From Candidatus Sungiibacteriota bacterium (GTDB lineage: Bacteria > Patescibacteriota > Minisyncoccia > Sungbacterales > HO2-52-23), in NCBI GenBank assembly GCA_016432465.1, contig CP066690.1:317538-381537 (forward strand): a stretch of DNA of 64,000 bases. The letters run 5' to 3'. The notes under the pieces are model-generated. The model did not search any database. It saw only the letters and a program-made list of their open reading frames with translations, and was not told the origin of the DNA. Positions 6,430-51,699 of the stretch are shown here, in pieces. Position numbers and translations under genes: made by a program. Each line of letters starts with the position of its first letter. Position 1 is the first letter of the stretch.

Positions 6430-9400
6430 ATGAACATAGGCAGAATTCAACAAAGAGAAATAGTGGAGGAGATGCGCGAGTCGTACCTTGACTACGCCAT
6501 GTCGGTCATTGTTGCTCGCGCGCTTCCCGACGTAAGAGACGGCCTGAAACCAGTGCACCGCCGGATTTTGTATTCAATGCATGAACTTGGCCTGACGCAT
6601 TCAGCAAAAACAAGAAAATGCGCAACGATTATCGGAGACGTATTGGGTAAATACCATCCTCATGGCGACGTGGCGGTTTATGATGCGCTGGTGCGCATGG
6701 CGCAAGAATTTTCACTTCGTTATCCCCTCGTTGAGGGGCAGGGAAATTTTGGTTGTTTCACGCAAGATACAAAAGTAAAACTCACCGATGGGCGGGATCT
6801 TTCATTCGGAGAGTTGGCGGAGGAACTCAAGACCGGAAAAAAGAATTATACATACACCGTGAACAGTCTTGGGCTTGTTGGTCTCGCGGAAATAAAACAT
6901 CCGCGTCTTACGAAAAAGAAGGCCCGTGTTATCACCGTTGTTTTAGATAACGGAGAAACAATACGCTGTACGCCCGATCACCGATTTATGATGCGAGATG
7001 GAACATATAAAGAAGCCGGGTCCCTTACGGAACATGACTCGTTGATGCCGCTCTACCAAAAACTATCAACGAAAACAGACAGACTGCAACGGGAAGGATA
7101 CCTATTGGTGTACCAGCCCAAAAAAGACGAATGGGTTCCGGCTCACCACTTGGCTGACAACTATAATCTGACGCGCCATATCTACCAAAAAAATGCCGGC
7201 CGCGTACGGCATCATGTGGACTTTAACAAACTCAACAATAACCCGGACAATGTCAAAAGGCTTGGCTGGGGCGAACATTGGAAAATCCACTATACACATG
7301 CGGCAAAACAACACCAAAAACCGGAATATCGGGAAAAAATCGCGTACGGGCGACGGATGTATTGGGCGGACGAGAAAAACAAAGAACACCACCGAAGCTT
7401 ACTTGCGGAGCGAAATCGCGTTAACTGGCAAAATCCCGAGTACCGAGAACGAATGAAGACATTCCTAAGTCAAGTCAACACCGAATATGTCAAGAAGCAT
7501 CCGGAAAAGAGGAACGAGTTTAGCGAGCGGGCAACACGAACGCTCAAACGCCTGTGGCAAGATCCAGAGTACCGGGCGACGATGCATCAAAAAATCATCA
7601 AAGGGAACAAAAATCATGTCAGCAACAAAACAGGAAAGCTAAAATTTTTAAACATTTGTAAAGAAACACTGAATCGTTTTCAGATACTTGAAGAAAAAGT
7701 ATATGAGCAAGCGCGTAAAGAGGTATATCCATATGGACGGGCGCCTTTATGGAAAACCGGATTGCAAAAATACTTTGCCGGAGATTCAAACCTTGTTCAT
7801 CAGGAATTGTTTAAAAATCACCGAGTTATAAGGATTGAGGACAAAAATGAGTACGAAGACGTTTTTGATCTAACCGTTGACGGAACTCATAATTTTGCGT
7901 TAGCAGCAGGTGTTTTTGTACATAATTCAATTGATGGGGACGCCGCCGCACACTATCGCTATACCGAAGCCCGCATGACCAGAATTGCCGAAGAGCTCCT
8001 GCGCGACATTGAAAAAAATACAGTTGAATTTCGCGACAACTACGATGCCACCCGTAAAGAACCCGTAGTACTTCCTGCGGCTCTTCCCGCTCTCCTGCTT
8101 AACGGAACTCTGGGAATAGCGGTGGGAATGGCAACCAGTATTCCTCCGCATAATCTTGGCGAGGTAACTGCGGCCCTGATCCACTTTAGCGACCACCCCA
8201 AGGCCTCGCTGGAGGATCTAATGGAGTTTATCAAGGGGCCGGACTTCCCCACCGGAGGAATAATTTTTGACGAAAAAGAAATCCGCGCCTCTTACGCATC
8301 GGGCAAGGGGGCCATTTTAAATCGTGGTGTGGCCGAGATTGAAGAGGGCGGCCGCGGAGCGCACCAAATTGTAATCACGGAGATTCCGTATCAGGTAAAC
8401 AAGGCCGAACTAATAGAAACCATGGCCGGTCTCGTGCAGGAAAAGAAAATTGAGGGCATACGAGATATTCGTGACGAATCCGACCGGCAAGGCATGCGCA
8501 TAGTGATTGAACTTAAACAAGATGCGCATCCGCAGAAGGTTTTAAACAATCTTTACCGGCACACTGACCTTGAAAAAACGTTTCACCTAAACATGCTTGC
8601 TTTGGTGGATGGGATTCAGCCGCAGGTACTCTCCATAAAAGAGGTGCTGGAAGAATTTCTGAAGCACCGAAACCAAGTAGTAACCCGCCGCACCAAGTTT
8701 GACCTGACCCGAACCCGCGAGCGCCTGCATATTTTAGAAGGACTGAAAAAGGCGCTGGACCACATTGACCGCGTAATTGAAACTATTAAAAAATCCAGAG
8801 ACCGCGATGAAGCGCGTGAAAATTTAATGAAGAAATTTGCCCTAACGGAGCTGCAGGCCGCCGCAATTCTAGAGATGAAACTGCAGACGCTGGCCGGTCT
8901 TGAACGACAAAAAATAGAGGATGAACTCAAAGAAAAGACGGCACTGGCCAAAAATCTTGAGGCCCTGCTGAAAGATCCTAAGAAAATCACAGATGTTATA
9001 AAAAGGGAATTGCACGAAGTAAGGGAAAAATACGGAGACGAGCGAAAAACTAAAGTCATAAAAACATCCCCCAAAGAACTTTCCGAGGAAGATTTGATTC
9101 CCGCAGAAGAGGTAGTGGTGGTGCTGACTCGCGGCGGTTACATAAAACGGATAAAACCGGAACAATACAAAATGCAGAAGCGCGGCGGTAAGGGGCTTAT
9201 CGGGATGGAGACCAAAGAGGAAGACATGGTGGAACATTTGCTAACCTGCAATACTCACTCCAACCTTCTTTTCTTCACCAGTTCCGGAAAGATTTATCAG
9301 GTTCGGACCTACGAAATTCCGGAAGGAAGTCGTATCTCCAAAGGCAAGGCAATCTTTAACTTTTTGGCGCTTTCCAGCAATGAGCAGATAAACTCCCTTC

Positions 9401-10041
9401 TGGCCACTGCCGGAGCGAAAAAGGGAGAACGCGAGGGTTACATAGTAATGGTGACCAAAGACGGCGTCATCAAAAAGGTTACAGCTTCGGCTTTTGAGAA
9501 CGTCCGCCGCTCAGGACTAATTGCTCTAACCCTAAGGGGCGGCGATCTGCTGCGTTGGGCCAAACTAACGAGCGGCTCTGACGAACTTATACTGGTTACC
9601 AAAAAGGGACAGTCCATAAGATTTGCAGAAAAAGATGTGCGTCCCATGGGACGACAAGCCAGCGGTGTTCGGGCCGTACGTCTGAAAAAAGGTGATGAGG
9701 TGGTGGGTATGGACGTAATCAATAAGGAACAAGTAGCCAACGGTAAATTGCTGGTCATAATGGAGAACGGATTTGGCAAACACACGTTAGTTAAACAATA
9801 CAAAAGGCAACGCAGGGGCGGATCAGGCATAAAAACTGCCAAAATTACTTCCAAAACAGGAAATGTTGTCGGGGCGCGTATCGTGGACAAGGAAGAAACG
9901 GAACTAATCACTATATCCAAAAAAGGTCAGGTTATCCACACTACCCTTGCGGCCATACCCGTGCTCGGCCGCGCCACCCAAGGAGTAAGAATTATGAAAT
10001 TGGAAACAGGAGACGCGGTGGCTTCTATTACTGCGCTGTAA
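6430..10041 (+). CDS. gyrA: DNA gyrase subunit A, interrupted by an in-frame intein
   Basis: N-terminus ...[17 protein letters not shown]...GKYHPHGD...GQGNFG, then C-extein [17 protein letters not shown] (catalytic Tyr region), GyrA box and C-terminal beta-pinwheel repeats; 1203 aa against ~810 aa expected without the insert. Confidence 0.9.
6754..7926 (+). mobile_element. Intein (391 aa) in gyrA carrying an HNH-type homing-endonuclease region and NUMOD-like repeats
   Basis: Starts with Cys right after GNFG (tgt at 6754); block-B TPDH; ends VFVHN (His-Asn) followed by +1 Ser (tca 7927); internal [27 protein letters not shown] (I-HmuI-like HNH) plus three ~30-aa repeats ending NPEYRE(K/R)M / DPEYRATM. 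Confidence 0.8.
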
Positions 10042-10665: not shown

Positions 10666-11943
10666 ATGGCTCGTCCTCTAAATACAGTGCTTGTTGTGGC
10701 CGGACTGGTTGCGGTCATTTTGATTCTGGCTCTGGCGGGAATACTGCCGGGAAGGAAAACCGCCAAGCCCCAGCCCGCTACTTTGGAATTTTGGGGATTG
10801 AAGGACGATGACCTTTTGTGGCGTCCTATTCTGGAAAAATTCAGGAAGGAAAAACCCCACCTTACCGTAAACTATCGGCGTTTTGACGAAATCTCTTACG
10901 AAGAAAACCTTATCAACAAAATGGCCGAGGGCCGCGGTCCGGACATCTTTTTCCTAAAAAACTCATGGGTTGAAAAACATCGCGACAAAATTTTACCCCT
11001 GCCGCAGGAAGTTTTAAAATTTACCGTCAAAGATTTTCAAAAAACTTTTGTAGATGTCGCCTCTCAAGATTTAACCACCAGCGACAATCAAATCCTTGGT
11101 CTGCCCCTTTTTGTGGACACCTTGGCTCTTTTTTATAACAAAGATGTTTTTAACGCCGGGGGCGTGGCCGAAACGCCTAAAACTTGGGGCGAGCTGGAAG
11201 CTGTAGCCAAGAATCTTACCAAAAAAACTGCGGCAGGAGACATCACAAAGTCAGGAGTTGCTCTGGGCGGATCTTCCAACATTGAACACGCGCTTGAGAT
11301 TTTAAGCGCTTTCGTACTGCAGGGGGGTGATAAAATTATAAATCGCGCTAACATGGCGCTGGAACTTGGCGCCCCATCCCGGGAGGCTCTGGATTTTTAT
11401 ACCTCATTTGCCAACGCTAAAAACCCAAACTTTTCCTGGACATTGCGCCAACCTAAGTCTCTGGACGCCTTTTCGCAGGAGCTTACGGCCATGGCCCTTG
11501 GCTTTGCGGATGATCTGCCCAGGGTTAAAGCCAAGAATCCGCATCTTAACTTCGGCGTATCTTTTCTGCCCCAGCGCGCCGATGCCAAAACCTTTGTAAC
11601 TTACGGCAGTTATTTTTTCCCGACCGTATCCCGCCTTTCCAACAATCCGCTTCCTGCTTGGGAGTTTATTCTCTTTGCCGCATCGGCTGATTCTTCAGAA
11701 ATTTATACTAAAAACTCGGGGAAGCCTCCGGCCCGACGCGATCTTCTGGCGAAAAACGCCGCGGCCCTTGAACTGGATATTTTTTATCGTCAGGCCCTTA
11801 CGGCCAAAAGCTGGCCCATTACTGACGAAAAAATAACTCGCCGTCTTTTTGAAGATACGATAGAATCCGTAGTAACCGGGGGAAATACCACAGACACGGC
11901 CTTGAATCGTCTAAGGGAGAAACTTAGTCTTAGTCTGCCATGA
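10666..11943 (+). CDS. ABC transporter extracellular solute-binding protein (family 1, sugar-type)
   Basis: N-terminal membrane anchor, then typical SBP_bac_1-like sequence (WGLKDDDLLWRPILEKF..., LPLFVDTLALFYNKDVF). Confidence 0.6.
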   Translation: MARPLNTVLVVAGLVAVILILALAGILPGRKTAKPQPATLEFWGLKDDDLLWRPILEKFRKEKPHLTVNYRRFDEISYEENLINKMAEGRGPDIFFLKNSWVEKHRDKILPLPQEVLKFTVKDFQKTFVDVASQDLTTSDNQILGLPLFVDTLALFYNKDVFNAGGVAETPKTWGELEAVAKNLTKKTAAGDITKSGVALGGSSNIEHALEILSAFVLQGGDKIINRANMALELGAPSREALDFYTSFANAKNPNFSWTLRQPKSLDAFSQELTAMALGFADDLPRVKAKNPHLNFGVSFLPQRADAKTFVTYGSYFFPTVSRLSNNPLPAWEFILFAASADSSEIYTKNSGKPPARRDLLAKNAAALELDIFYRQALTAKSWPITDEKITRRLFEDTIESVVTGGNTTDTALNRLREKLSLSLP

Positions 11944-12947
11944 AAATTATCCGCTATCGCACGCTTTCTTTTTGGACCGCAACAACTGGTTTGGTTTTAA
12001 TTGCGGCTGTTTTCGCAATACCATTTTTTGTTTCTGCTCAAGGTATAATCCCGCAGTGTCCGGACCGAATTATTGTTGATTCTGCGGGCAAAGAGCTGCA
12101 AAGGATTCCCAACGTCTGTACGGCCTGCGACCTTTTTAACCTTTCTCAAAGTGTACTTAATTTTGTCTGGAGGCTATCTGCGGTAGGGGCTGCCCTGATG
12201 CTTGGTTACGGCGGGTTTTTGATGATTGTGCCGGGAATTGGCGGAGAAAAATCAGCAGCCATGTATGAGAAGGGTAAAAAGGTCCTAACCAACACAGTTA
12301 TTGGCCTTGTGATTATCTTCTTTGCATGGCTGGCCGTAGATACTATAATAAAAGTGTTGGGGGGGAAAATAGCAGCTGGCTTTGGCGAAAATACGGAATA
12401 TCTGGGCGGCGGAGGCTTTGAATTCGGACCATGGAACCGGATTAACTGTTCGCCCCCGGAAACCAGAAAAGTTGTAGCATCGCCCGCAACAAAACCAACA
12501 ACACCTACGCCAGCCCCCATTCCATCCCCCACCACTAGTCCAACCCTAAATCACGCCGAAGCTCTTGGGATTTTTGCTGCTAATCGTATAAAAATTGAAT
12601 CCAAGGGAAACTGTGATGACCGAAACAGCGCCGTCTGTACTTCTCTTGAGGGCCTAAGGAGAACCACCCTCAATCGTGTAGTACTGTTTAAACTGGAATG
12701 TAACTGCGAGGTTACCGTAAGCGGAGGAACAGAGACGGGACACGAAGCAGGACAGTTTAGTCATGCCAGCGGGTATAAGGTTGATATTAAAAGAACAGCA
12801 GCGGTTGACTCCTATATCACCCGTAACTACCGCAACGCAGGAAAACGCAGTGACGGAGCACAAATTTTTGTTGCGCCGGACGGAGCAGAGTTTGCGCGTG
12901 AAAGCAGTCACTGGGACGTAAGGGGGTGGGATGTAACCGTCCGCTAA
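11940..12947 (+). CDS. membrane protein with N-terminal TrbC/VirB2-like pilin domain, Pro/Thr linker and C-terminal Cys-containing domain
   Basis: Signal/TM, then two TM helices in the same arrangement as the small pilin paralogs downstream (LMLGYGGFLMIVPG...VIGLVIIFFAWLAVDTIIKVLGG); PTTPTPAPIPSPTTSPT linker. Confidence 0.55.
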   Translation: MKIIRYRTLSFWTATTGLVLIAAVFAIPFFVSAQGIIPQCPDRIIVDSAGKELQRIPNVCTACDLFNLSQSVLNFVWRLSAVGAALMLGYGGFLMIVPGIGGEKSAAMYEKGKKVLTNTVIGLVIIFFAWLAVDTIIKVLGGKIAAGFGENTEYLGGGGFEFGPWNRINCSPPETRKVVASPATKPTTPTPAPIPSPTTSPTLNHAEALGIFAANRIKIESKGNCDDRNSAVCTSLEGLRRTTLNRVVLFKLECNCEVTVSGGTETGHEAGQFSHASGYKVDIKRTAAVDSYITRNYRNAGKRSDGAQIFVAPDGAEFARESSHWDVRGWDVTVR

Positions 12948-43757: not shown

Positions 43758-44411
43758 ATGTCTCATTTCAAACACCCATCCACTATTGTCGCCTTTATTT
43801 TGGGGGCACTAATTTTTACAGCGCCGTTGGTGTTTTCCTTTACCGAACCAGGCTCGTCTCCACCCGGCGGAAATGTGCCGGCGCCGTTAAACATAGGCCC
43901 AACAGGCCAGTCCAAGACTGGTGGGCTTATATTAAATACCGGAGGCGCAGCCAACGGCCTTATTATTGATCAAGGAAACGTCGGAATCGGAACTTCCGGT
44001 CCCGGCTACAAACTTCATGTAAAAGGGGGGAACTTTAACGTAGAAAATGGGAAAGTCTTTCAGGGGGGCTCCGAACTTTTACCAGCCGGAGCAGTGCTTT
44101 ATTTTAACCTAACCTCCTGTCCCGGCGGATGGTCTGAACTCACGGCTGCTCGCGGTAGATATATTGTCGGACTTCAACAGGGTGGTTCTCTGGGGACAAC
44201 CGTAGGAACAGCTCTTTCCAACCAAGAAAACCGCGCCACAGGAAAGCATAATCACCAATTAGGGGGCCTTTGGGTAAATCAGGGCAATGGAAACAATCCG
44301 GCAGGCACTGCCAATCCAGAACGATGGGCCCCTTATGAAACTGGTTATGCGGGGGACGTGGATGGAACAAATGCTCCGTATATTCAACTTTTGGCCTGTC
44401 AGAAAAATTAG
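43758..44411 (+). CDS. phage-tail-collar-domain-like secreted/membrane-anchored protein
   Basis: N-terminal TM; C-terminal region LPAGAVLYFNLTSCPGGWSELTAARGRYIVGLQQGG...HNHQ resembles the phage tail collar / MdpB-like domain; start uncertain (43701 or 43758). Confidence 0.45.
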   Translation: MSHFKHPSTIVAFILGALIFTAPLVFSFTEPGSSPPGGNVPAPLNIGPTGQSKTGGLILNTGGAANGLIIDQGNVGIGTSGPGYKLHVKGGNFNVENGKVFQGGSELLPAGAVLYFNLTSCPGGWSELTAARGRYIVGLQQGGSLGTTVGTALSNQENRATGKHNHQLGGLWVNQGNGNNPAGTANPERWAPYETGYAGDVDGTNAPYIQLLACQKN

Positions 44412-44452: not shown

Positions 44453-45322
44453 ATGAAACTACGATTTCACCAACGTATATTTCTTATCGGAATCTTCCTG
44501 ACCTTAGGAGTAGCTGGTATTTTAATTGTCAAAAATTCTGCCGCCAGCGCCAGCGTCTCCGACAACCTATCCGGTTGGGCTTGGAGTGAAAACATCGGCT
44601 GGATTAGTTTTAATTGCTCCAACTCGGGCTCCTGCGGCTCTTCCAATTACGGAGTAAACGTAAAAAATAACGGAGACCTTGAAGGATATGCTTGGTCTGA
44701 AAATATCGGCTGGATAAGTTTTGAGAAGAATGATGTCAAAAACTGCCCCTCTACTCCGTGTAATCCAAAATTCAATAAGGGTCCGGTAACAGTGGAAGGC
44801 TGGGCCAAGGCTCTGGCTGCCGACAACAACGGCTGGGACGGGTGGATTCACCTGAGGGGTTCTAATTATGGAGTTACGGCTAGCGGCTGCAGCTGGGACG
44901 GATATGCGTGGGGCTCTGATGTTTTGGGCTGGATTCATTTCAAAGGAGCAAACTACGGGGTTACGGGTTCGGGAGACGCCTGCGCAGTTGTCTGCAATGA
45001 CACAGTTGATAACGACGGTGATGGTTTTATAGACTATCCTGCTGACGTAGGTTGCTCTTCAACTACTGATATGGATGAGAGAAATCAGTGCACTGATGGT
45101 TTAGACAATGATGCTGATGGAAAAATTGATTTCCCGGCTGATTCCGGATGTACCAGTGCTCAAGATAACGATGAGCTGGACGTAACTCAATGTTCTGACG
45201 GCATTGATAATGACGCTGATGGCAAAATAGACTATCCCAACGATATTGGCTGCGCAACAGTCTCGGACAACGACGAGACAGACCCTCCGGAGCCATTTTT
45301 CAAAGAGGTTCCTCCTGAATAG
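44453..45322 (+). CDS. secreted Cys-rich repeat protein (GWxWSENIGWISF repeats + four CxDGxDNDxDGxIDxPxDxGC repeats)
   Basis: Signal anchor; two WSENIGWISF repeats; four tandem 22-24-aa Asp-rich Cys-bounded repeats (calcium-binding-like); C-terminus PEPFFKEVPPE. Confidence 0.6.
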   Translation: MKLRFHQRIFLIGIFLTLGVAGILIVKNSAASASVSDNLSGWAWSENIGWISFNCSNSGSCGSSNYGVNVKNNGDLEGYAWSENIGWISFEKNDVKNCPSTPCNPKFNKGPVTVEGWAKALAADNNGWDGWIHLRGSNYGVTASGCSWDGYAWGSDVLGWIHFKGANYGVTGSGDACAVVCNDTVDNDGDGFIDYPADVGCSSTTDMDERNQCTDGLDNDADGKIDFPADSGCTSAQDNDELDVTQCSDGIDNDADGKIDYPNDIGCATVSDNDETDPPEPFFKEVPPE

Positions 45323-45458
45323 ACAAAAAGGAAAGAGTAGACAAAATAAGCCATTCCACGGCAATATAATGCCGTGGAATTGCTTTTTGTGTAAAATGGG
45401 TGTATAATATAGATATAAAGACGGAGGCAAAGAAACCCTAAAACGGAGGAAAGAAAAA

Positions 45459-45974
45459 ATGAAGATAGCCGTACTTTTGGGGTTGCTTATTTTCGGAGCC
45501 TTTCAAGAGACACCCGTACCTTTTGTCAACGCCGGCCTTGAGCTCAAGGCCGCGCTCCCAACACACCCCACCATCAGTAATGTCGCCGCATGGCAGAGCG
45601 GCGAAGACATCAACGTCCGATTTGAGTATGCCGACCTCGCCGGCGGGATGGGCCAAGCCGAGTTTTGGGTACAGTGTTTCCAGGTCTGGCAACAAAAAGG
45701 CCTGGAGACACAAACGGTCTGGCCGCTCCTTAGGTTTGTCCTGCCCCAAGATCCACGCCACGACGCTGAACCCAACGGGACGTTTGCGGCCTCCATTCCT
45801 CTCTACTACATCACCCCCAGAGGCGGGTGGACAGGAGAGAGGTTGCGCTGCCGATTCTTCATCTACGGCGCGCGACAGGAGGTCGCTACAAGCGCCAACA
45901 GCAGTCAAACCGTCAGGAACTCCAGCAATATTCTGGAGATAGAACTGACGCCAACGCGGCAGCGTGAGGCATGA
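45459..45974 (+). CDS. secreted hypothetical protein (appears GC-richer than surroundings)
   Basis: RBS GGAGGAAAG then ATG 45459; signal peptide MKIAVLLGLLIFGAFQ; the overlapping minus-strand ORF 45438..45977 is judged spurious. Confidence 0.5.
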   Translation: MKIAVLLGLLIFGAFQETPVPFVNAGLELKAALPTHPTISNVAAWQSGEDINVRFEYADLAGGMGQAEFWVQCFQVWQQKGLETQTVWPLLRFVLPQDPRHDAEPNGTFAASIPLYYITPRGGWTGERLRCRFFIYGARQEVATSANSSQTVRNSSNILEIELTPTRQREA

Positions 45975-46123
45975 CACGTCCTAGATAGACCGAACAGTAG
46001 TTCAGAGCAGGGTAACCACCCCCTGCTCGTTCCTTTTTGTTAGAGACCATGTTTGTAGACTTAGTAGTCTACAACAAAACCACACTGGGCAAAGATTAAA
46101 AGCCGTGGTTTAATGAAAGCATC

Positions 46124-47617
46124 ATGACTTTTGTAAATAAAAAGACGTTACTGGTTCTACTAATTTTAGTGGTGTTGGTAGTATTCATCTATCCGCATCC
46201 GGCTGACGCTTTTTTCCATAAAAGTTTCTTCAAGTTTTTAAAAAAATTGCTTCCAATAATCATTATTGTTGCGGCGGCTGTTGTAGGCGGCATGGCGGTA
46301 TCGGGTATTATCCTTGTTAAGGCTATTGGCACGACAAGTCTTTTGATCGTAGGGACAGCAGTAGCCGTAACCTCGGTGCTGGGTTTGGACTGCGTTCTGC
46401 CCAATGTTGGTACTGACCCCAACTTTGTATGTAAGGGCACCACCGCCGCGCAAAGTTTTCTCGGTGGAGACAGAATTCTTGGATGCGATCCCTCGGCTGG
46501 GAGTACGCTTGGGGTAGATGTCAAAGCAAAAAGTGAAGATGGTCCAGTTGCGCTCACGGAACCGGCATTCTATAACGTGGCCTGGTGCATTAACGGAGTA
46601 AAAGCAGGGTCTATTCAGGATGAAGAAGGTACGGGAAAACAATATGTTGCCTTTGACAATGAAGGTAACAACGCAGTGCTCAGTGAGTGCGGTTGGGGCG
46701 GAAATAGATTTAGCGGAAGAGTGACGTCTTTTTCAGATTTTAATCAGGAACTGGGTGATTCCATAGATAAAGGCGGCGGTAAAAGAGAATACCAGGGAAT
46801 GAAAGTTGGAACATATACCTACACTGTCAACTGCACCCAACCCAAAACCGAAAGCGTGGACCTTGGCGAGGGTCGCATACGAGAATACGTGGTTGGCATT
46901 GAATCTTCTTCAGATACGGTTGTGGTAATAGTAAATCCAAAACAGACTGGCGGAGGCAGTACCGGAGGAGGACAGACAGGCGGCGGACAAACCGGAGGCG
47001 GACAAACTGGGGGTGGGCAACAACAGCAACAACAGCAGCAACAGCAGCAGCAAACACAACCTCAAGCCGGAACCCAATGCAATCCTCCTCGTTGGAATGA
47101 TATAAGAGTGGATGCGTGTCTGGACGAGGAAGGTGGTAAGGCAAACTGTGACAAAAAACAAGAGGCAGCCAATGGATGGTGCAGTATTGCTTGTGGGGGA
47201 GGAGAGGCATTGGGTTTTAACACTTTCTGGGACGATACTGGCCCCGGTACAAAATACGTACCCACTGGCAGAGTATGCCCAACCTGTAATTTCTACTTCA
47301 CCAGTGTTTCTTGCGGCAGACGCGAAGCGACCAAACCGCCACCGCCAGCCCCTGCGGCCATTATGAATTTCCTTGCTGCGCCAAAATCTATTAACCCCGG
47401 AGAATCCACAACTTTGTCTTGGTCTTCAATAAATGCGACTTCCTGCAATATAGATCAAGGAATCGGCCCTGTTGATACCAGAGGTTCTCGCTCTGTAAAC
47501 CCAACCAAAAGTACCACCTATACTCTGACCTGCTCCGGAGAAGGGGGCTCGCATTCTGCCAGCGTTACGGTTGATGTTTCCAAAATACCATTTCAAAAAG
47601 AAGTAGTGCCGGAATGA
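46124..47617 (+). CDS. large Cys-rich surface protein, paralog 1 (N-terminal TMs, Cys-rich domain, GGGQT/poly-Q linker, Cys-rich module, Ig-like C-terminal domain)
   Basis: Two N-terminal TM helices; (TGGGQ)x4 + Q12 low-complexity linker; C-terminal ~190 aa nearly identical to 50253..51674; ends KIPFQKEVVPE. Confidence 0.65.
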   Translation: MTFVNKKTLLVLLILVVLVVFIYPHPADAFFHKSFFKFLKKLLPIIIIVAAAVVGGMAVSGIILVKAIGTTSLLIVGTAVAVTSVLGLDCVLPNVGTDPNFVCKGTTAAQSFLGGDRILGCDPSAGSTLGVDVKAKSEDGPVALTEPAFYNVAWCINGVKAGSIQDEEGTGKQYVAFDNEGNNAVLSECGWGGNRFSGRVTSFSDFNQELGDSIDKGGGKREYQGMKVGTYTYTVNCTQPKTESVDLGEGRIREYVVGIESSSDTVVVIVNPKQTGGGSTGGGQTGGGQTGGGQTGGGQQQQQQQQQQQQTQPQAGTQCNPPRWNDIRVDACLDEEGGKANCDKKQEAANGWCSIACGGGEALGFNTFWDDTGPGTKYVPTGRVCPTCNFYFTSVSCGRREATKPPPPAPAAIMNFLAAPKSINPGESTTLSWSSINATSCNIDQGIGPVDTRGSRSVNPTKSTTYTLTCSGEGGSHSASVTVDVSKIPFQKEVVPE

Positions 47618-47639
47618 AGCTCCGACCAGCAAGCTGGTC

Positions 47640-47716
47640 GGTATTTGGCGAAGGAGAAGTTAAGTTCTAAAAAGTCCCGACCAGTCGGGGCTTTTTAGAA
47701 CTTAACTTCTCCTATC
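47640..47716. terminator. bidirectional terminator (long palindrome)
   Basis: GGAGAAGTTAAGTTCTAAAAAG-TCCCGACCAGTCGGGGC-TTTTTAGAACTTAACTTCTCC, >20-bp outer stem. Confidence 0.65.
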
Positions 47717-49182
47717 AAAACATTAAATTGATTGGCAAAACCAATACTTTCTATGCTGCCATCGGGTGTAAAAATACCCGCAATATCGCGCCTTCCGCTC
47801 ACAATAATCGGGACCCGCAGCCATACTGCCTCAATTCTGCGAAGATTATTTGTTAATGCCAGATAATTTTCTATTCCCAGCGGCACCCAAAGATTGCTTG
47901 AAGTATTTATAATAATATTTGCGCCGCCCCGAACCGCGCGCCGAAGCCGGGTGGGGTCATGAATCTCAAGACAAATAGGAGAGGCAATTTTGAGATTATC
48001 AAACAAAACCGTACCGCCCTTGCCAAAGGAAAATGAGTACTCGGGGTGAAACACGACGTTGTCGCCGTAGCGCGCCGCATTGGCTTGAGACCCCTTCAGA
48101 AACCAACCAAAATAAAACGGTCGCCATGTCCCAAATGGCCAGTACTCGCCGCCTATGGCCAGACTCCGTTTGTGATAAACCGCCTCCAGCTCGCCAGAAG
48201 GAGAAAAAAAGAGGTTTGAGTTATACTTCTTTCCCTGTTCAATTGTGGTTAGATTGGCAACCACGCGCGTCCCTGCCGAGCGCGCCAGCGCGCGATAGGA
48301 CTGGATCAAGCCTCCGTTATTTGTGATATTAAACTTTTGCAATGCTTCCTTATCAACGTCGTTGGTAACATTCACGTCAACAAGCGCCTCCGGCAGCGCC
48401 ACCAAGTCAACTTGACGCGCTGAAAGTTTTTCTTTAAGCGGCGCGAGAAACGCCTCAATGCGCGCGAGAAACTCTGCCTGCTTTTCCGGCGTGATCTCTA
48501 TGTTCCGTAACCCGTCAAATTCAGTGCCCAAGGGGTTTGTAGAAATAGCGGCAATACGAAAACTTCGGGGTAGAACTTCGTAGGCCTTGAGGCGGCTTGC
48601 AAGGGTCGCCGAAGAAATCTGCCATCCCAGCAGCAAAAAACCCACTGCCAGTAAAATAGGAATTAGGGGGCGTGAATGCCGCCGGTAGTAACCGAGGAAA
48701 ATCAACCAATTCACAAGTATCACAAAAAAACCCATACCCAAAAACCCTCCCCACCGCGCCAGACCCAAAAACGGACCTTGGCCCAAAATCGCCCCGGAAT
48801 TTATGGCAAATGAAGGGAAAAACCCACTTGCGGAAGCAAGATAGTCAAAAACGGCCCAAAATAGGGGCAAAGAAAAAATCGCCGCGCGTTCTCCCAAAAA
48901 ACGCCGCGCAACAAAAAATGCCACGGGAAAACCAAGAAATACAATGATGGGTATGCCAAAAACAACCGGGTCAAAAATAAAATAAACCGCACCCAAAGCA
49001 AAAAGGAACCGGTATATCAATGTCCCAAAAATCAGACGCCACAGCCGCCCCTCTTTTAAATAAAAAACAAAAAGTGGCACGGCAAACAAAAACCCCAACC
49101 ACCAGAAATTATACGGCGGCAGAGAAAAAATCTGCAGCGCCGCCGATACTACCACTAAAATAATCCACAGGCGTGCTTTCAT
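47695..49182 (-). CDS. lnt: apolipoprotein N-acyltransferase
   Basis: N-terminal polytopic membrane region followed by a C-N hydrolase domain (..EYWPFG.., ..ASPICLEIHDP.. with catalytic Cys context). Confidence 0.65.
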   Translation of the reverse strand: MKARLWIILVVVSAALQIFSLPPYNFWWLGFLFAVPLFVFYLKEGRLWRLIFGTLIYRFLFALGAVYFIFDPVVFGIPIIVFLGFPVAFFVARRFLGERAAIFSLPLFWAVFDYLASASGFFPSFAINSGAILGQGPFLGLARWGGFLGMGFFVILVNWLIFLGYYRRHSRPLIPILLAVGFLLLGWQISSATLASRLKAYEVLPRSFRIAAISTNPLGTEFDGLRNIEITPEKQAEFLARIEAFLAPLKEKLSARQVDLVALPEALVDVNVTNDVDKEALQKFNITNNGGLIQSYRALARSAGTRVVANLTTIEQGKKYNSNLFFSPSGELEAVYHKRSLAIGGEYWPFGTWRPFYFGWFLKGSQANAARYGDNVVFHPEYSFSFGKGGTVLFDNLKIASPICLEIHDPTRLRRAVRGGANIIINTSSNLWVPLGIENYLALTNNLRRIEAVWLRVPIIVSGRRDIAGIFTPDGSIESIGFANQFNVLIGEVKF

Positions 49183-49211
49183 CTTTTCTTTTAGTATACT
49201 ACGATTAAAAA

Positions 49212-49661
49212 ATGGAACCGACTCCTCCTATAATAAAAATCATATTTAAGATTTTGGCGCTTGCTATACTCATAGTCGCTGCGCTTTCTTTTATCGGCCT
49301 ATGGCTTCAGGTATTTTCCGCCAGAGCCGACTTTTGGTATATAATCCGTGCCGCAACTTTAGTTCTTCTTAACCTTGTGGGGTTTTACGGATTTTGGAAT
49401 ATGCGGACTTGGCTTGTGTCCATCCTTCTCCTAAACCTTATCAACATGGCGGTAAGCCAAGCCCTTGGCCTCGGCTCCTTCTCAACAGTAACTCTTTTGG
49501 TGGTGGTAGGCATTTTTGTCTTGGTGGCGCTGCTCCGCAGACACCTTAGCGGAAGGTACGAAGAGCCCCTGCCGCTTATTCTTTTTATCGGAGGCGCTCT
49601 CTTGAGCCATATCGCGGCTCGCTTTATAACCTCTGGTGCTGTTGACTTTTTCGTGAAATAG
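49212..49661 (+). CDS. hypothetical integral membrane protein
   Basis: 149-aa ORF with 4 predicted TM helices. Confidence 0.5.
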   Translation: MEPTPPIIKIIFKILALAILIVAALSFIGLWLQVFSARADFWYIIRAATLVLLNLVGFYGFWNMRTWLVSILLLNLINMAVSQALGLGSFSTVTLLVVVGIFVLVALLRRHLSGRYEEPLPLILFIGGALLSHIAARFITSGAVDFFVK

Positions 49662-49720
49662 GGGTATAATTAGAGTATAGTAAACCCCAAAAAGCCAGAA
49701 AACCAGAAAAGGAGGCAGAA

Positions 49721-50206
49721 ATGAAAAACAGGGGGTTCGCTCTTTTCACACTAGTTGCGGTGGCCCTCGTTTTTGGGGGCTGCGCAGTCGTCAATACCAG
49801 CGTAAGACCGAGTGCCCCGTTCCTCAACATCGACGGCTTCAATGCCGTCGAAATCAAGGGCAAGATCACGGACAAACAACGGGTCGAGGAGCTGAAGAAG
49901 TTCCTCGACGCCAAGATTGGGGGACTGGGCGAAGGGTCTGCTTCCCTCCTCATAGATTTCACCGTCTATGATGAGGGGGACGACCTCACACGCAGGATGC
50001 TTGGCTTTGGGGCGGGGAAGGTCCGCTTCGGAGCACAGGTGTCGATTCTGAAGAACGGACAGGCCGTATTTACGTGGCCTGTCTGGATAGATTCCAGCAT
50101 CACCGCTCACATCACGGTGGGCGGAATGCTGGAGAGGTTCGCCGAGAAGGTTGCGGCGGACCTTGCATCCATTCTTCGTAAGACCCCCCAGCCCTCAACG
50201 GGTTAG
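49721..50206 (+). CDS. putative lipoprotein (appears GC-richer than surroundings)
   Basis: TATAAT at 49667; RBS AAAGGAGGCAG; signal + lipobox-like LVFGGC. Confidence 0.5.
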   Translation: MKNRGFALFTLVAVALVFGGCAVVNTSVRPSAPFLNIDGFNAVEIKGKITDKQRVEELKKFLDAKIGGLGEGSASLLIDFTVYDEGDDLTRRMLGFGAGKVRFGAQVSILKNGQAVFTWPVWIDSSITAHITVGGMLERFAEKVAADLASILRKTPQPSTG

Positions 50207-50252
50207 GGGGTTTTATATTGTTTTAGTACTAAGAAAACATTATTATAAATTT

Positions 50253-51674
50253 GTGGACCAGAGACTTCGCACAAACACAAAGGATAACAAAGTAGCATGG
50301 AGACTACTGATCGTTTTTTTACTTATATCTTTATTACTGCCGTCCGCAACCTATGCGGCCATACTCCCATTTCCAATTATAATCGCCCTCATTGCGGCCA
50401 CCGGAATTGCCGTGACGATTGACTACGCCACCTGCGTCGTAAATGTCGTCTGGGGCGGATGCGGCAACGGCGGTAAGAGTTTTGAAGGAGAACGGGGGAT
50501 TGGTTGTGATCCTCGTTCCGATACGCTCGGCGTTGACGTGAAAGCTAATAATTCCGATGCGCCGGAACCTTTTAATGAACCGGCATTTTATAACATTAAC
50601 TTTTGTATAAAGGGCCCGTGGGCGGAATACACGGAAGGCGGGCAGAGTTTTAACACCAATAGAATGCAGTGCGGATGGAGCGGCAATAGATTTGGCAGCG
50701 AAGAGACCAGAAACTCCGGCAGCTTTCGGGAGTGGGGGGAATGGGGCGGTCCCGGAGGCTCAATTCCTCAAGGCATGAAAGCGGGAACCTATACTTATAC
50801 CCTTTCCTGCACAGGAGCATCCAAAGATCTTGAAGGAGGAGGACCAGAGCAGTCAGCTTCGGACACGGTGGTGGTCAATGTAACCGCAAAAACTACATGC
50901 GTTGCCGATACCTGGAGTTGTGGAGACTGGAGCTCTTGTTCAAACGGCAACCAAACCCGTTCGTGTAATAAAACCTTTGATTGTTCGTCAACAGACACTC
51001 CTTCGCCGCCAACTAGTCAGTCCTGTACAATCAGCAGTGAAACTGATGGGGGTAAAAAGGACGATGGAAGTAAAAAAGATGATGGAAGTAAAAAGGACGA
51101 CGGACAACAGCAACAACAACAGCAGCAAACACAACCCCAAGCCGGAACCCAGTGTAATCCTCCTCGTTGGAATGATATAAGAGTGGATGCGTGTCTGGAC
51201 GAGGAAGGTGGTAAAGCAAACTGCGATAAAAAACAAGAGGCAGCCAATGGGTGGTGCAGTATTGCTTGTGGGGGAGGAGAGGCATTGGGTTTTAACACTT
51301 TCTGGGATACTAGTGGTCCCGGTACTAAATACGTTCCTACGGGCAGAGTATGCCCAACTTGTAGTTTCTACTTCACCAGTGTTTCTTGCGGCAGACGCCG
51401 ACCACCTCCGGCAGCCATTATGAGCTTTATTGCCTCACCCCGCTCCATCAATCCCGGAGAGTCAACCACTCTTTCTTGGTCCTCATTAAACGCCACCTCT
51501 TGTAACCTTAATCAGGGCATTGGTTCGGTTTCCACCAGCGGTTCTCGCTCTGTAAACCCAACCAAAAGTACCACCTATACTCTGACCTGCTCCGGAGAAG
51601 GGGGCTCGCATTCTGCCAGCGTTACGGTTGATGTTTCCAAAATACCATTTCAAAAAGAAGTAGTGCCGGAATGA
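50253..51674 (+). CDS. large Cys-rich surface protein, paralog 2
   Basis: Same architecture as 46124..47617; (DGGKKD/DGSKKD)x3 + Q8 linker; C-terminal module near-identical at nucleotide level; the track ORF begins at ATG 50151 overlapping the upstream gene, an in-frame GTG at 50253 is an alternative start; start unresolved. Confidence 0.55.
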   Translation: MDQRLRTNTKDNKVAWRLLIVFLLISLLLPSATYAAILPFPIIIALIAATGIAVTIDYATCVVNVVWGGCGNGGKSFEGERGIGCDPRSDTLGVDVKANNSDAPEPFNEPAFYNINFCIKGPWAEYTEGGQSFNTNRMQCGWSGNRFGSEETRNSGSFREWGEWGGPGGSIPQGMKAGTYTYTLSCTGASKDLEGGGPEQSASDTVVVNVTAKTTCVADTWSCGDWSSCSNGNQTRSCNKTFDCSSTDTPSPPTSQSCTISSETDGGKKDDGSKKDDGSKKDDGQQQQQQQQTQPQAGTQCNPPRWNDIRVDACLDEEGGKANCDKKQEAANGWCSIACGGGEALGFNTFWDTSGPGTKYVPTGRVCPTCSFYFTSVSCGRRRPPPAAIMSFIASPRSINPGESTTLSWSSLNATSCNLNQGIGSVSTSGSRSVNPTKSTTYTLTCSGEGGSHSASVTVDVSKIPFQKEVVPE

Positions 51675-51699
51675 ATTCTAAAAAGTCCCGACTGGTCGG

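Follow-up and report, generated by a model that had tools for sequence, protein, structure and literature searches.

A lineage-wide C-terminal tag on exported surface proteins of Parcubacteria/Paceibacteria, a probable docking or sorting handle

Three exported proteins with a common ending

The window analyzed here is a 64-kb stretch from a Candidatus Sungiibacteriota genome. Three genes in it encode exported, cysteine-rich proteins, designated P1, P2, and P3 (Table 1), which end in PFFKEVPPE (P1) or IPFQKEVVPE (P2 and P3). The original prediction of three secreted Cys-rich proteins with a common KEV(V)PE tail is borne out, as reading frames ending in KE[VIL]xPE-stop or [VIL][VPIL]PE-stop are confined to these three across all six frames of the whole window. 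Each carries a hydrophobic segment at its N-terminus with an A-x-A-like cleavage site, predicted to be cut between ...KNSAASA and SV in P1, ...PHPADA and FF in P2, and ...PSATYA and A in P3, and they contain 12, 16, and 22 cysteines, respectively (3.2-4.7%). The P3 reading frame opens at TTG 50151, with the true start probably at GTG 50253.

P1 consists of a signal peptide (helix 5-27, cleaved after SAASA), four GWAWSENIGWISF-type repeats, three acidic double-disulfide repeats, and the C-terminal tag. The four GWAWSENIGWISF-type repeats are modelled as an 8-stranded beta-barrel covering residues ~39-172, and the protein, with its three disulfide repeats, scores above the cut-off of NF033662 (acidic double-disulfide repeat protein; 44.1 bits versus 41). 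The terminator-like hairpin beyond the P1 stop indicates that the gene and its transcript really end just after the tag. In P2 the order is signal peptide, hydrophobic (TM-hairpin-like) segment, Ig-like domain, Gly/Gln low-complexity linker, Cys-rich domain, a further Ig-like domain, and the tag.

Table 1. Features of the window discussed in the text (positions within the 64-kb stretch)
Feature	Position	Strand	Description
Tail-fibre-like exported protein	43758..44411	+	ORF opens 43701; directly upstream of P1, 42-nt gap
P1	44453..45322	+	289 aa, C-terminal end ...DPPEPFFKEVPPE
P1 C-terminal tag	45287..45319	+	PEPFFKEVPPE, long form (P-x-F-x-E-V-x-P-x)
Terminator-like hairpin	45353..45380	+	11-bp stem and T-run, 31 nt past the P1 stop
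P2	46124..47617	+	497 aa, C-terminal end ...SKIPFQKEVVPE
Duplicated segment, copy 1	47029..47618	+	Cys-rich domain, last Ig-like domain, and tag of P2
P2 C-terminal tag	47585..47614	+	IPFQKEVVPE, long form, Q at -2 replacing the usual aromatic
Divergent Lnt-like enzyme	47695..49182	-	Between P2 and P3; nitrilase-superfamily, polytopic membrane protein
Small multi-TM protein	49212..49661	+	Homolog (28% identity) immediately precedes P2/P3-family genes in arrangement-B loci
Lipoprotein	49721..50206	+	Lipobox VFGGC, DUF4410; directly upstream of P3
P3	50253..51674	+	P2 paralog, 473 aa from GTG 50253; ending identical to P2
Duplicated segment, copy 2	51104..51675	+	Partner of 47029-47618
P3 C-terminal tag	51642..51671	+	IPFQKEVVPE, DNA identical to P2 tag

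The tail common to P2 and P3 was inherited through a ~590-bp duplication, the last ~590 nt of the two genes being 84-93% identical and the final 33 nt fully so, and their two endings therefore count as one observation. P1, in pairwise comparison, has no similarity to P2 besides the tail. Its codons for P-F-x-K-E-V-x-P-E differ from those of P2 and P3 (GAG/GAA, GTT/GTA, CCT/CCG) and the similarity ends at the stop codon, so that the three endings match as peptides and not as a DNA repeat. When homologs are considered, the match between P1 and P2/P3 is far beyond chance. The null reading, in which duplication explains P2 and P3 and the P1 match is coincidental, does account for the former, but the tag also occurs on homologs of P1, on homologs of P2/P3, and on at least 5 further families in many genomes (p of 1e-10 to 1e-30); this reading is already refuted, and we give it practically no credence.

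Anatomy and distribution of the tag

The consensus of the tag is P(-4)-x-[F/W/Y](-2)-x-E(0)-[I/F/V](+1), followed in 72% of tails by the stop codon and otherwise by x-P-(x) or, in some homologs, by P-P and a ~20-residue amphipathic/hydrophobic helix, an arrangement found in ~10 GW-family homologs. The KEV(V)PE motif of the original prediction is thus real, but only as a local "long" variant, the constrained core being P-x-aromatic-x-E plus at least 1 further residue. In the P2/P3 family the tail consensus reads ...TP[KR][LV][RK]E[IV]xP[RY]. Proline occupies position -4 in 75% of tails even though it was absent from the search pattern, and conservation alternates between the proline, the aromatic residue, and the glutamate (i, i+2, i+4). 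These positions, and not the terminal residue, are the most constrained; the latter may be I, F, or V, and also G, K, N, T, H, or E. Past the glutamate there are 1, 3-4, or ~22 residues (~20-30 in extended forms), and just 1-4 in P1, P2, P3, and ~90% of carriers. None of ~118 tag proteins terminates exactly at the glutamate, and a proline at +3 is kept in all long and extended forms. With its 6-11 residues, the tag sits 3-6 residues after the last folded domain, and neither a TM helix nor a basic tail follows the motif in P1, P2, or P3.

This anatomy bears on several known types of C-terminal signal. The T9SS C-terminal domain (Por_Secre_tail), a beta-sandwich of ~80-100 aa, was ruled out by the length of the tag and the lack of any Pfam or NCBIfam match, and assignment as an OMP beta-signal or PDZ C-terminal ligand failed on the variable terminal residue and core-to-terminus distance. 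The eukaryotic organelle retention and targeting peptides KDEL/HDEL and PTS1 (SKL) are likewise very short and uncleaved, combine hydrophilic with hydrophobic residues, and form the very end of soluble proteins belonging to many families, in each case read by one receptor. They differ from the tag in that its terminal residue and the distance of that residue from the core vary, which indicates that the determinant does not lie in a free carboxylate at a fixed position. A glutamate followed by a hydrophobic C-terminus resembles PDZ class III ligands, and short-form tails do end in I, F, V, L, or Y after the glutamate, as would be expected of a recognition peptide whose free hydrophobic C-terminus is read by a PDZ-type C-terminal protease or quality-control factor (Ctp/Prc/HtrA-like). 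This is very unlikely, however, given the unfixed distance from core to carboxylate, the strongest constraint lying at -4, -2, and 0, long forms that end in E, Q, K, R, or P, and short forms that may end in N, G, H, or E.

Still less probable is a signal at the level of translation, a nascent-chain or termination-context motif (for example, EF-P-dependent stalling at PPE) that would pause ribosomes at the ends of exported proteins. PP[E/D] is a strong stalling context and P1 ends in PPE-stop, but P2 and P3 have VPE instead, 72% of tails lack any proline past the glutamate, and neither the stop codons nor the sequence downstream of tag genes is conserved. The carriers are also large multi-domain proteins rather than small monitoring peptides upstream of sec genes.

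The original prediction stood to be refuted by restriction of the motif to these paralogs or by an equal frequency in cytoplasmic proteins, and the distribution of the tag contradicts both. It forms the C-terminal end of 72 of the 120 P1 homologs, all from Patescibacteria (among those with the tag are P0001, ending in PEPKFKEIPPE, P0010, and P0011), and of all homologs recovered for the rare P2/P3 family (P0209, P0294, P0297, and ORFs in L081-L102), and it is carried by at least 7 unrelated families. The strict motif falls at 54 C-termini and 4 internal sites in P1 homologs and at no C-terminus in a non-CPR control set. In 1.28 Mb from related genomes, the tag ends 39 of 1311 genes versus ~2.9 expected, and 2 of 1400 shadow ORFs (binomial p=2e-30, Fisher p=1.4e-10 for the 39 genes). 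All 39 of these carriers have an N-terminal signal/TM (hydrophobic) segment, compared to 42% of all genes (p=6e-16).

The domains preceding the tag include acidic-disulfide repeats, Ig-like, PKD, CARDB, and Big_2, and the same Ig-like domain occurs without the tag in Acidobacteria Pal proteins. The tag is real, selected at the peptide level, specific to the C-terminus and to exported proteins, and modular across families. It is a lineage-wide C-terminal tag of the ultra-small Parcubacteria/Paceibacteria (CPR) that was previously unannotated, and our literature search found no paper describing it. The central idea of the original prediction, a short signal conserved at the C-termini of exported proteins that otherwise differ, and distinct from the known TM-containing signals, is supported by these data. 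On the surface proteins that carry it, the tag probably serves as a docking or sorting handle.

Genes adjoining the tag genes

The gene directly upstream of P1 encodes a tail-fibre-like exported protein with a lineage-specific N-terminal tag, FTEPGSSPPGGNVPAPLN, right after its signal peptide. Genes for proteins with this CPR-specific motif, [FW]TxP[TS]xxPPxGN[VT]xxP[LI]N, are immediate same-strand neighbors of 13 of 43 tail genes and of 40 of 1230 other genes (OR 12.9, p=3.6e-9), which demonstrates that tail genes are genetically linked to these N-tag fibre genes. The N-tag neighbors match PHROG tail-fibre profiles and the Bdellovibrio protein Bd2133 (PDB 8ond, E=4e-6). It is these neighbors, and not the C-terminal tag, that invite comparison with phage tail fibres and with the mosaic adhesive trimer fibres of Bdellovibrio (PDB 8ond, 8ojn); GNVGIGTxxPxxKLHV repeats are common to the Bdellovibrio fibres, the gene upstream of P1, and its relatives, and the CPR-specific N-terminal motif sets the N-tag proteins apart. 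The relation of the fibre proteins to the C-terminal tag is one of genetic linkage only. The cell that hosts the fibre genes presumably attaches to other cells.

Between P2 and P3 lies a divergent Lnt-like enzyme that matches both CN_hydrolase and LNT_N in Pfam and scores 118.7 bits against TIGR00546, under the equivalog cut-off of 132.9. A single-sequence search with it recovers no solved Lnt, and its profile matches solved Lnt structures at E~2e-9. K338, C404, and E406, the first two of them catalytic, show no variation and line up with the YxK and ICxE motifs of Lnt. In other genomes, too, the gene is found in synteny with the P2/P3 family. Two arrangements of these genes occur, and one of them includes an ICMT/PEMT-like methyltransferase as well. 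A lipobox protein occupies the position of the window's lipoprotein in L081, L094, L095, and L101, and the lipobox proteins at this position, including that of the window, have no detectable sequence homology to one another. The envelope context that the original prediction drew from lnt and lipoprotein genes holds for the P2/P3 family, but not for the tail in general; no Lnt homolog is found near any of 80 GW-family genes.

Sorting, end-capping, or docking

Short conserved motifs close to the C-terminus that recur on exported proteins of unrelated families are known from the sortase LPXTG, exosortase PEP-CTERM, archaeosortase PGF-CTERM, and rhombosortase GlyGly-CTERM signals. These, too, are lineage-specific with several carriers per genome, and the minority of tag homologs that have a hydrophobic helix past the motif resemble them. 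The tag differs from all of these in its motif and in the absence of a TM helix and basic tail from ~90% of carriers. The final 45 residues of P1, P2, and P3 contain no LPXTG-like pentapeptide, and a scan of the 1.28 Mb of related DNA for the sortase TLxTC signature yielded spurious matches only. Curated NCBIfam/TIGRFAM sorting-domain models had no match at E<=10 among 19 tag-bearing or neighboring proteins, although a very weak match could have escaped, since the speed filters of HMMER discard most of those above E~0.1. The analogy to sortase, exosortase, or rhombosortase drawn in the original prediction is accordingly unsupported, and no peptidase or transpeptidase consistently adjoins the tail genes.

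Covalent sorting could nevertheless take a different form, in which a membrane-associated transpeptidase or amidase cuts just after the invariant glutamate, with the 1, 3-4, or ~22 residues beyond it as the leaving group, and couples the freed C-terminus to peptidoglycan, to a lipid head-group, or to another protein, thus working like a sortase or exosortase with no need for a TM anchor. We consider this scheme unlikely. A post-glutamate segment that varies in length and is never zero, with no strict conservation at +1, is consistent with it, as are the motif-plus-anchor-like GW-family homologs, the essential absence of classical LPXTG/PEP-CTERM signals from the same 1.28 Mb, and the synteny of a Cys-nucleophile Lnt-like membrane enzyme with the P2/P3 family. 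Tag carriers also make up roughly 1-3% of genes, the typical range for sorting-signal regulons. Evidence to the contrary comes from the lack of a TM helix or basic cluster in P1, P2, P3, and most carriers, from the failure to find sortase, exosortase, rhombosortase, or YkuD signatures near tail genes, from the GW-family genes with no Lnt homolog nearby, and from the curated models that found no match. The proline kept at +3 argues further against cleavage, as the supposed leaving group would itself be constrained.

In a more specific version, which we regard as quite improbable, CPR would have a new covalent sorting pathway that needs no TM segment and recognizes its substrates by the tag, and the Lnt-like Cys-nucleophile enzyme could catalyze both a cut right after the glutamate and transfer of the new C-terminus to a lipid head-group or cell-wall amine. 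Such a cut would explain why 1, 3-4, or ~22 residues follow the glutamate and never 0, and, if true, a relative of Lnt would work as a C-terminal "sortase."

The tail might alternatively have no partner at all and act as a structural end-cap, packing on the last domain or shielding the C-terminus from carboxypeptidases, which are hindered by a proline at or beside the C-terminus. Its closeness to the last domain fits, as does an AF2 model in which the P1 tail has a pLDDT of ~88 with or without the N-terminal (GW) barrel. An end-cap is improbable, however: the tag is found behind domains of unrelated structure (disulfide knots, Ig-like, PKD, CARDB), it is missing from homologous Ig-like domains in organisms other than CPR, and 72% of tails have no proline past the glutamate. 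It would also leave the strong linkage to N-tag fibre genes unexplained.

Our leading but tentative interpretation is that the tag is a non-covalent docking peptide for a shared envelope partner; we infer both this role and the identity of the receiving protein. The i, i+2, i+4 pattern fits an extended peptide recognized on one face, consistent with a strand, and carriers may dock on their common partner by strand addition or groove binding. The best candidate partners would be the adjoining tail-fibre-like proteins, which have a conserved N-terminal tag of their own, with type IV filament subunits as a weaker candidate. The unchanged pLDDT of the P1 tail in the absence of the GW barrel gives no sign of docking in cis on that barrel. 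Several observations count against docking: the P2/P3 family has N-terminal membrane segments and would need no tag for retention, the homologs with an amphipathic helix past the motif resemble a classical motif-plus-anchor signal, and an ending that never falls at the glutamate also suits a leaving-group requirement.

The closest precedent for docking is PilC/PilY1, a Sec-exported protein with a TM-less terminal docking peptide or "plug," the last 10-12 residues of which insert into the minor pilin PilK by beta-strand addition (PMC13533445; bioRxiv 10.64898/2026.09.18.752573). Monoderm T4aP reportedly lack PilC/PilY1 and PilK, and the hosts of the tag are monoderm CPR. The tag proteins further differ from PilC/PilY1 in lacking the IPR008707 beta-propeller (Pfam, NCBIfam), with disulfide repeats or Ig-like domains in its place, and in sharing one consensus across at least 7 unrelated families with several genes per locus, while a PilC/PilY1 system has one or two such proteins, whose plug sequences are species-specific. 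The PilC plug is disordered, unlike the P1 tail in its high-pLDDT model, and proximity of tag genes to prepilin-type genes is not significant overall (p=0.17), with no such genes in the window. In both cases, though, a TM-less motif of ~10 residues forms the very end of a surface protein that is Sec-exported, is not a pilin, comprises several domains, and has variable adhesin-like N-terminal parts, and the tag may, by analogy with the plug, be an uncleaved docking strand. Genes of the GW family directly adjoin pilB or pilin genes in 7 of 68 loci.

The three tailed proteins of the window

The three exported Cys-rich proteins P1, P2, and P3 had been singled out in the original prediction for their common KEV(V)PE ending (hereafter the tail or tag), and the open reading frames (ORFs) and endings agree with that description. 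A six-frame scan of the whole 64 kb found KE[VIL]xPE followed by a stop only on these three ORFs. Each has an N-terminal hydrophobic segment and 12 to 22 cysteines. P1 consists of a signal peptide, four GWAWSENIGWISF-type repeats, three acidic double-disulfide repeats scoring above the cut-off of NCBIfam NF033662, and the tail. The four repeats are predicted by AlphaFold2 to form an 8-stranded meander barrel (mean pLDDT 86), for which Pfam has no model, and an exact-protein look-up returned no record of P1. In P2 and P3, a signal peptide is followed by a hydrophobic segment, an Ig-like domain, a low-complexity linker, a Cys-rich domain, a second Ig-like domain, and the tail, and neither protein matches a curated family in Pfam or NCBIfam. 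The most likely start of P3 is the GTG at 50253, which gives a standard signal peptide (…PSATYA/A) and no overlap with the upstream gene.

P2 and P3 are paralogs, ~40% identical in their N-terminal halves and 84-93% identical over the last ~590 nt (47029-47618 versus 51104-51675), where even the tail codons are the same. Because they are paralogous with near-identical ends, we treat the pair as a single observation. Outside the tail, P1 and P2 share no detectable similarity; the P-F-x-K-E-V-x-P-E of P1 is written in different synonymous codons, and DNA similarity ends at the stop codon, so the common element is a peptide and not a DNA repeat. These same features rule out overlap with a terminator as the source of the resemblance. 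A strong terminator hairpin lies 31 nt 3' of P1.

The linker of P2 (46930..47075) is (GGGQT)x4 then Q12, and that of P3, at the same position (51010..51110), is a run of GGKKDD/GSKKDD repeats then Q8. Their position directly 5' of the 590-bp duplication suggests that gene conversion or a partial duplication had the poly-Q tract as its boundary. Between P1 and P2 lie two nearly co-extensive ORFs on opposite strands, 45459..45974 (+) and 45438..45977 (-); the product of the former carries a signal peptide, and the fetched loci contain no homolog of it.

Features of the window and of the fetched loci (L, locus; P with four digits, homolog)
Feature	Position or members	Remark
P1	44453..45322	ends …DPPEPFFKEVPPE
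P2	46124..47617	ends …SKIPFQKEVVPE
P3	50151..51674	same ending as P2
Window N-tag fibre gene	43758..44411 (ORF from 43701)	42 nt upstream of P1
Tailed families	GW family; P2/P3 family; P0256; L004 5481-7883; L059 3636-7187; L059 7322-8614; L063 7761-9962 / L070 2405-5071	
P2/P3-family members	P0209, P0294, P0297, second paralog in L081, ~20 ORFs in L084-L102	L084-L102 are metagenome loci
Motif-plus-helix homologs	L034 9932-11149; L048 10007-11317; L062 646-1959; L074 3126-5312; L014 9302-11173; L050 8009-11311; P0117	
Methyltransferase arrangement	L082 4440-5132; same position in L088, L090, L091, L093, L097; L082 2007-2630	
Spermine/spermidine-synthase-like protein	L081 7617-9189; L086 1757-3469; L089 7837-9549; L095 2677-4383; L099 7857-9563	

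Consensus and spread of the tail

P1 belongs to what we call the GW family. Its homologs number more than 4,000, and all of those with an organism name are Patescibacteria. Among the best 120 of these >4,000 homologs, 72 end in [FWYILMV]-x-E-[IVFLTYM], 45 of them stopping directly and 27 continuing with x-P-(x). The stricter motif P-x-[FWY]-x-E-[IVFLTY] occurs 54 times at the C-terminus versus 4 times internally in the 46,260 residues of the best 120, and at none of the C-termini of 120 control proteins, mostly non-CPR. Numbered from the glutamate as 0, the consensus of 120 non-redundant tails is P(-4, 75%)-x-[F 61%/W/Y](-2)-x-E(0)-[I 47%/F 27%/V 10%](+1), followed by a stop in 72% (short form) and by x-P-(x) in 28% (long form). 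Pro -4 lay outside the search pattern and is nonetheless frequent, an independent argument that the motif is real. The KEVPPE and KEVVPE of the window are the long form, with Q at the consensus aromatic position in P2 and P3.

In a larger set of 1,726 non-redundant C-termini, the glutamate is followed by 1 residue in 62 cases, by 3 in 11, and by 4 in 20; 5-9 residues follow occasionally and ~20-30 in some, and 0 or 2 never. The +1 residue is mostly I, F, or V, with G, K, N, T, H, and E also found. Constraint falls on P-x-Φ-x-E together with one or more residues after it. Recognition of the tail as a PDZ or protease ligand is a less likely reading; the distance of the free carboxylate from the core is not fixed. 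A translation-pause motif is likewise less likely, and stop-codon read-through joining the short and long forms was rejected, as the stops are TAA 25, TAG 12, and TGA 2 with no conserved in-frame continuation. In about 10 GW-family homologs, LP[LF]PE[YF]xE[VI]PP is followed by a hydrophobic helix of ~17-25 residues and no basic tail; of 8 such helices, 3 are significantly amphipathic, and this form is possibly a membrane-anchored version of the tag.

To gauge the spread of the tail, we used 1.28 Mb made up of the window and 80 loci that surround GW-family genes in GTDB species representatives (Giovannoni-, Niyogi-, Kaiser-, Nealson-, Yonath-, Taylor-, Harrisonbacteria, and others), with ORFs called crudely. 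A loose tail pattern catches chance matches such as the …MREY of SecY, and counting needed an aromatic -2 and/or Pro -4. The tail ends 39 of 1,311 non-overlapping ORFs, against ~2.9 expected from the internal frequency of the motif (binomial p = 2e-30), and only 2 of 1,400 shadow ORFs (Fisher p = 1.4e-10); pure chance is among the less likely explanations. An N-terminal hydrophobic segment is present in all 39 tailed ORFs versus 42% of all ORFs (p = 6e-16). Both counts support the existence and the specificity of the novel, unusually short C-terminal signal on exported proteins that had been proposed.

Tails with Pro -4 end at least 7 sequence-unrelated families, in which acidic-disulfide repeats, Ig-like 'TYTLTC', PKD, CARDB, and Big_2 domains precede the tail. 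The P2/P3 family is rare, with four matches among 1.84 billion representatives, and every full-length member found ends in the long form (…TPKLREIIPR, …TPRLREVIPR, …TPRVREVAP, …EPTRREVPP[RY], …TPKLKEIAP). With full-length P2 as the query, low-complexity Gly/Gln matches dominated, and this search was kept as a negative control only; the C-terminal region of P2 retrieved mostly the Ig-like domain of Acidobacteria Pal proteins, lipoproteins in which this domain occurs without the tail.

Parcubacteria and their relatives are abundant, uncultured, ultra-small, and thought to live attached to other cells; to our knowledge, hardly anything is known of the organisation of their surface proteins. One short tag on many otherwise unannotatable exported proteins offers a simple sequence rule for listing the surface or attachment proteome, and a concrete peptide for binding, pull-down, and metaproteomic work. 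We rate it as belonging among C-terminal recognition tags, and its interest lies in its being widespread, cleanly defined, and directly testable.

Proposed docking, possible covalent sorting, and the gene neighbourhood

In P1, P2, P3, and ~90% of carriers, the motif is followed by neither a TM helix nor a basic cluster, the sorting-domain models of NCBIfam and Pfam gave no match even at E≤10 (HMMER filters drop most matches above E~0.1), and signature scans for sortase, YkuD, rhomboid, SPase, HtrA, and Ctp found nothing consistent near tail genes. The sortase-like mechanism that had been suggested is therefore unsupported. The literature searched holds no description of such a C-terminal tag in CPR bacteria, nor anything on the acidic double-disulfide repeat or on Lnt in Patescibacteria, and the tag appears undescribed in the libraries and literature searched. 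Classical signals (motif, then TM segment, then basic cluster) are all but missing from the 1.28 Mb, with a single exception, a 231-aa protein (L044 5227-5922, minus strand) that directly adjoins a GW-family gene and has a textbook PEP-CTERM-like end, …IVPEPSTLTLLFLSICLGGFILNQSAKRI; this end, unexpected in CPR, belongs either to a real exosortase substrate or to a binning/assembly chimera.

Covalent sorting with cleavage after the glutamate, the main rival to the docking discussed below, accounts for the variable, never-zero extension after this residue and for the motif-plus-helix variants, but it must also account for the conserved Pro +3, and no enzyme for it and no evidence of cleavage were found; we regard it as unlikely. 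If the tag were nevertheless covalently processed, it would represent a new class of bacterial protein-sorting signal for which a membrane anchor is unneeded.

For a TM-less motif at the very end of exported proteins, the nearest known parallel in behaviour is the Sec-exported adhesin PilC/PilY1. Two 2026 papers show that its last 10-12 residues form an uncleaved 'plug', which binds the minor pilin PilK by β-strand augmentation and is sufficient for localisation to the tip (PMC13533445; bioRxiv 10.64898/2026.09.18.752573). Unlike PilY1, the proteins described here lack a β-propeller and have a tag common to many families; since monoderm type IVa pili (T4aP) are also reported to be without PilC/PilY1 and PilK, the tagged proteins fall outside the PilY1 family. 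By analogy, the tag may tentatively be read as a docking tag through which diverse surface proteins would attach non-covalently to one common envelope partner. We favour docking on the basis of the PilC/PilY1 analogy, of conservation that alternates at i, i+2, and i+4, the pattern predicted for an extended peptide that is recognised along one face, and of linkage to fibre genes. A structural end-cap is less likely. Docking of the tail in cis on the GW barrel is unsupported, as the tail of P1 is modelled at pLDDT 88 with the barrel and 88-89 without it. A model of the acidic repeats plus tail gave no significant fold-search match.

Tail genes cluster with one another and with genes for tail-fibre-like exported proteins that bear an N-terminal motif of their own (N-tag), [FW]TxP[TS]xxPPxGN[VT]xxP[LI]N[VI]Gxx(x)QxKxGxL, directly after the signal peptide. 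Its core, [FW]TxP[TS]xxPPxGN[VT]xxP[LI]N, is present in 38 of the 1,311 ORFs (the window copy and 37 genes of L001-L080), always N-terminally (0 internal) and never together with the tail or GW repeats in one protein, and the motif has no match in Pfam or NCBIfam. An N-tag gene is the immediate same-strand neighbour of 13 of 43 tail genes versus 40 of 1,230 others (OR 12.9, p = 3.6e-9). PHROG tail-fibre families match N-tag proteins down to 7e-32, and the window copy matches the Bdellovibrio fibre protein Bd2133 (8ond; E = 4e-6) via GNVGIGTxxPxxKLHV repeats. The N-tag fibre proteins would be the best candidate partner for docking, and a docking tag paired with tail-fibre-like proteins bearing their own N-terminal tag makes a defined hypothesis. 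Type IV filament subunits would be a weaker candidate. The GW gene is followed by pilB at a distance of 62-87 nt in 4 loci and by a pilin gene at 16-82 nt in 3; in 17 of 68 loci, pilB is on the same strand and less than 10 kb away. Tail genes and other genes do not differ significantly in their closeness to prepilin-type genes (p = 0.17), and the window contains no prepilin-type genes.

The Lnt-like enzyme and other genes

A divergent Lnt-like enzyme, encoded between P2 and P3, is syntenic with the P2/P3 family in two gene arrangements from roughly 6-8 independent genomes. It scores below the Lnt equivalog cut-off and as a single-sequence query finds no solved relative; with a profile, the Lnt proteins of E. 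coli and P. aeruginosa are found at E~2e-9, and neither the catalytic Lys nor the catalytic Cys varies. An Lnt homolog is absent from all 80 GW-centred loci, and Lnt was rejected as a general partner of the tag. In P2/P3-family loci, a small multi-TM protein and/or a lipobox protein is often encoded directly upstream; the upstream lipoproteins have no detectable homology to one another and do not form a single family.

In one of the two arrangements, genes for an ICMT/PEMT-family membrane methyltransferase and a Methyltransf_3 protein flank the tagged gene beside the Lnt-like gene; a possible carboxyl- or lipid-modifying pathway so close to a protein tagged at its C-terminus is suggestive. In the other, a membrane protein of ~570 aa with a spermine/spermidine-synthase-like domain is encoded between the Lnt-like and P2/P3-family genes.

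A 335-aa protein with a T4SS_pilin (VirB2/TrbC-like) domain is encoded at 11940..12947 of the window. The P2/P3 family has hydrophobic N-terminal regions, made of a signal peptide and a Gly/Ala/Val-rich hairpin, that look similar to it in layout but do not match the T4SS_pilin model. Mean protein identity to the window is at most ~63% for every fetched locus. The window is an ordinary Parcubacteria-type CPR chromosome encoding Lon, RNase Y, NusA, trigger factor, ClpP, and an intein-containing GyrA (6430..10041), in which the Intein_splicing domain spans ~119-499 of 1,203 aa.
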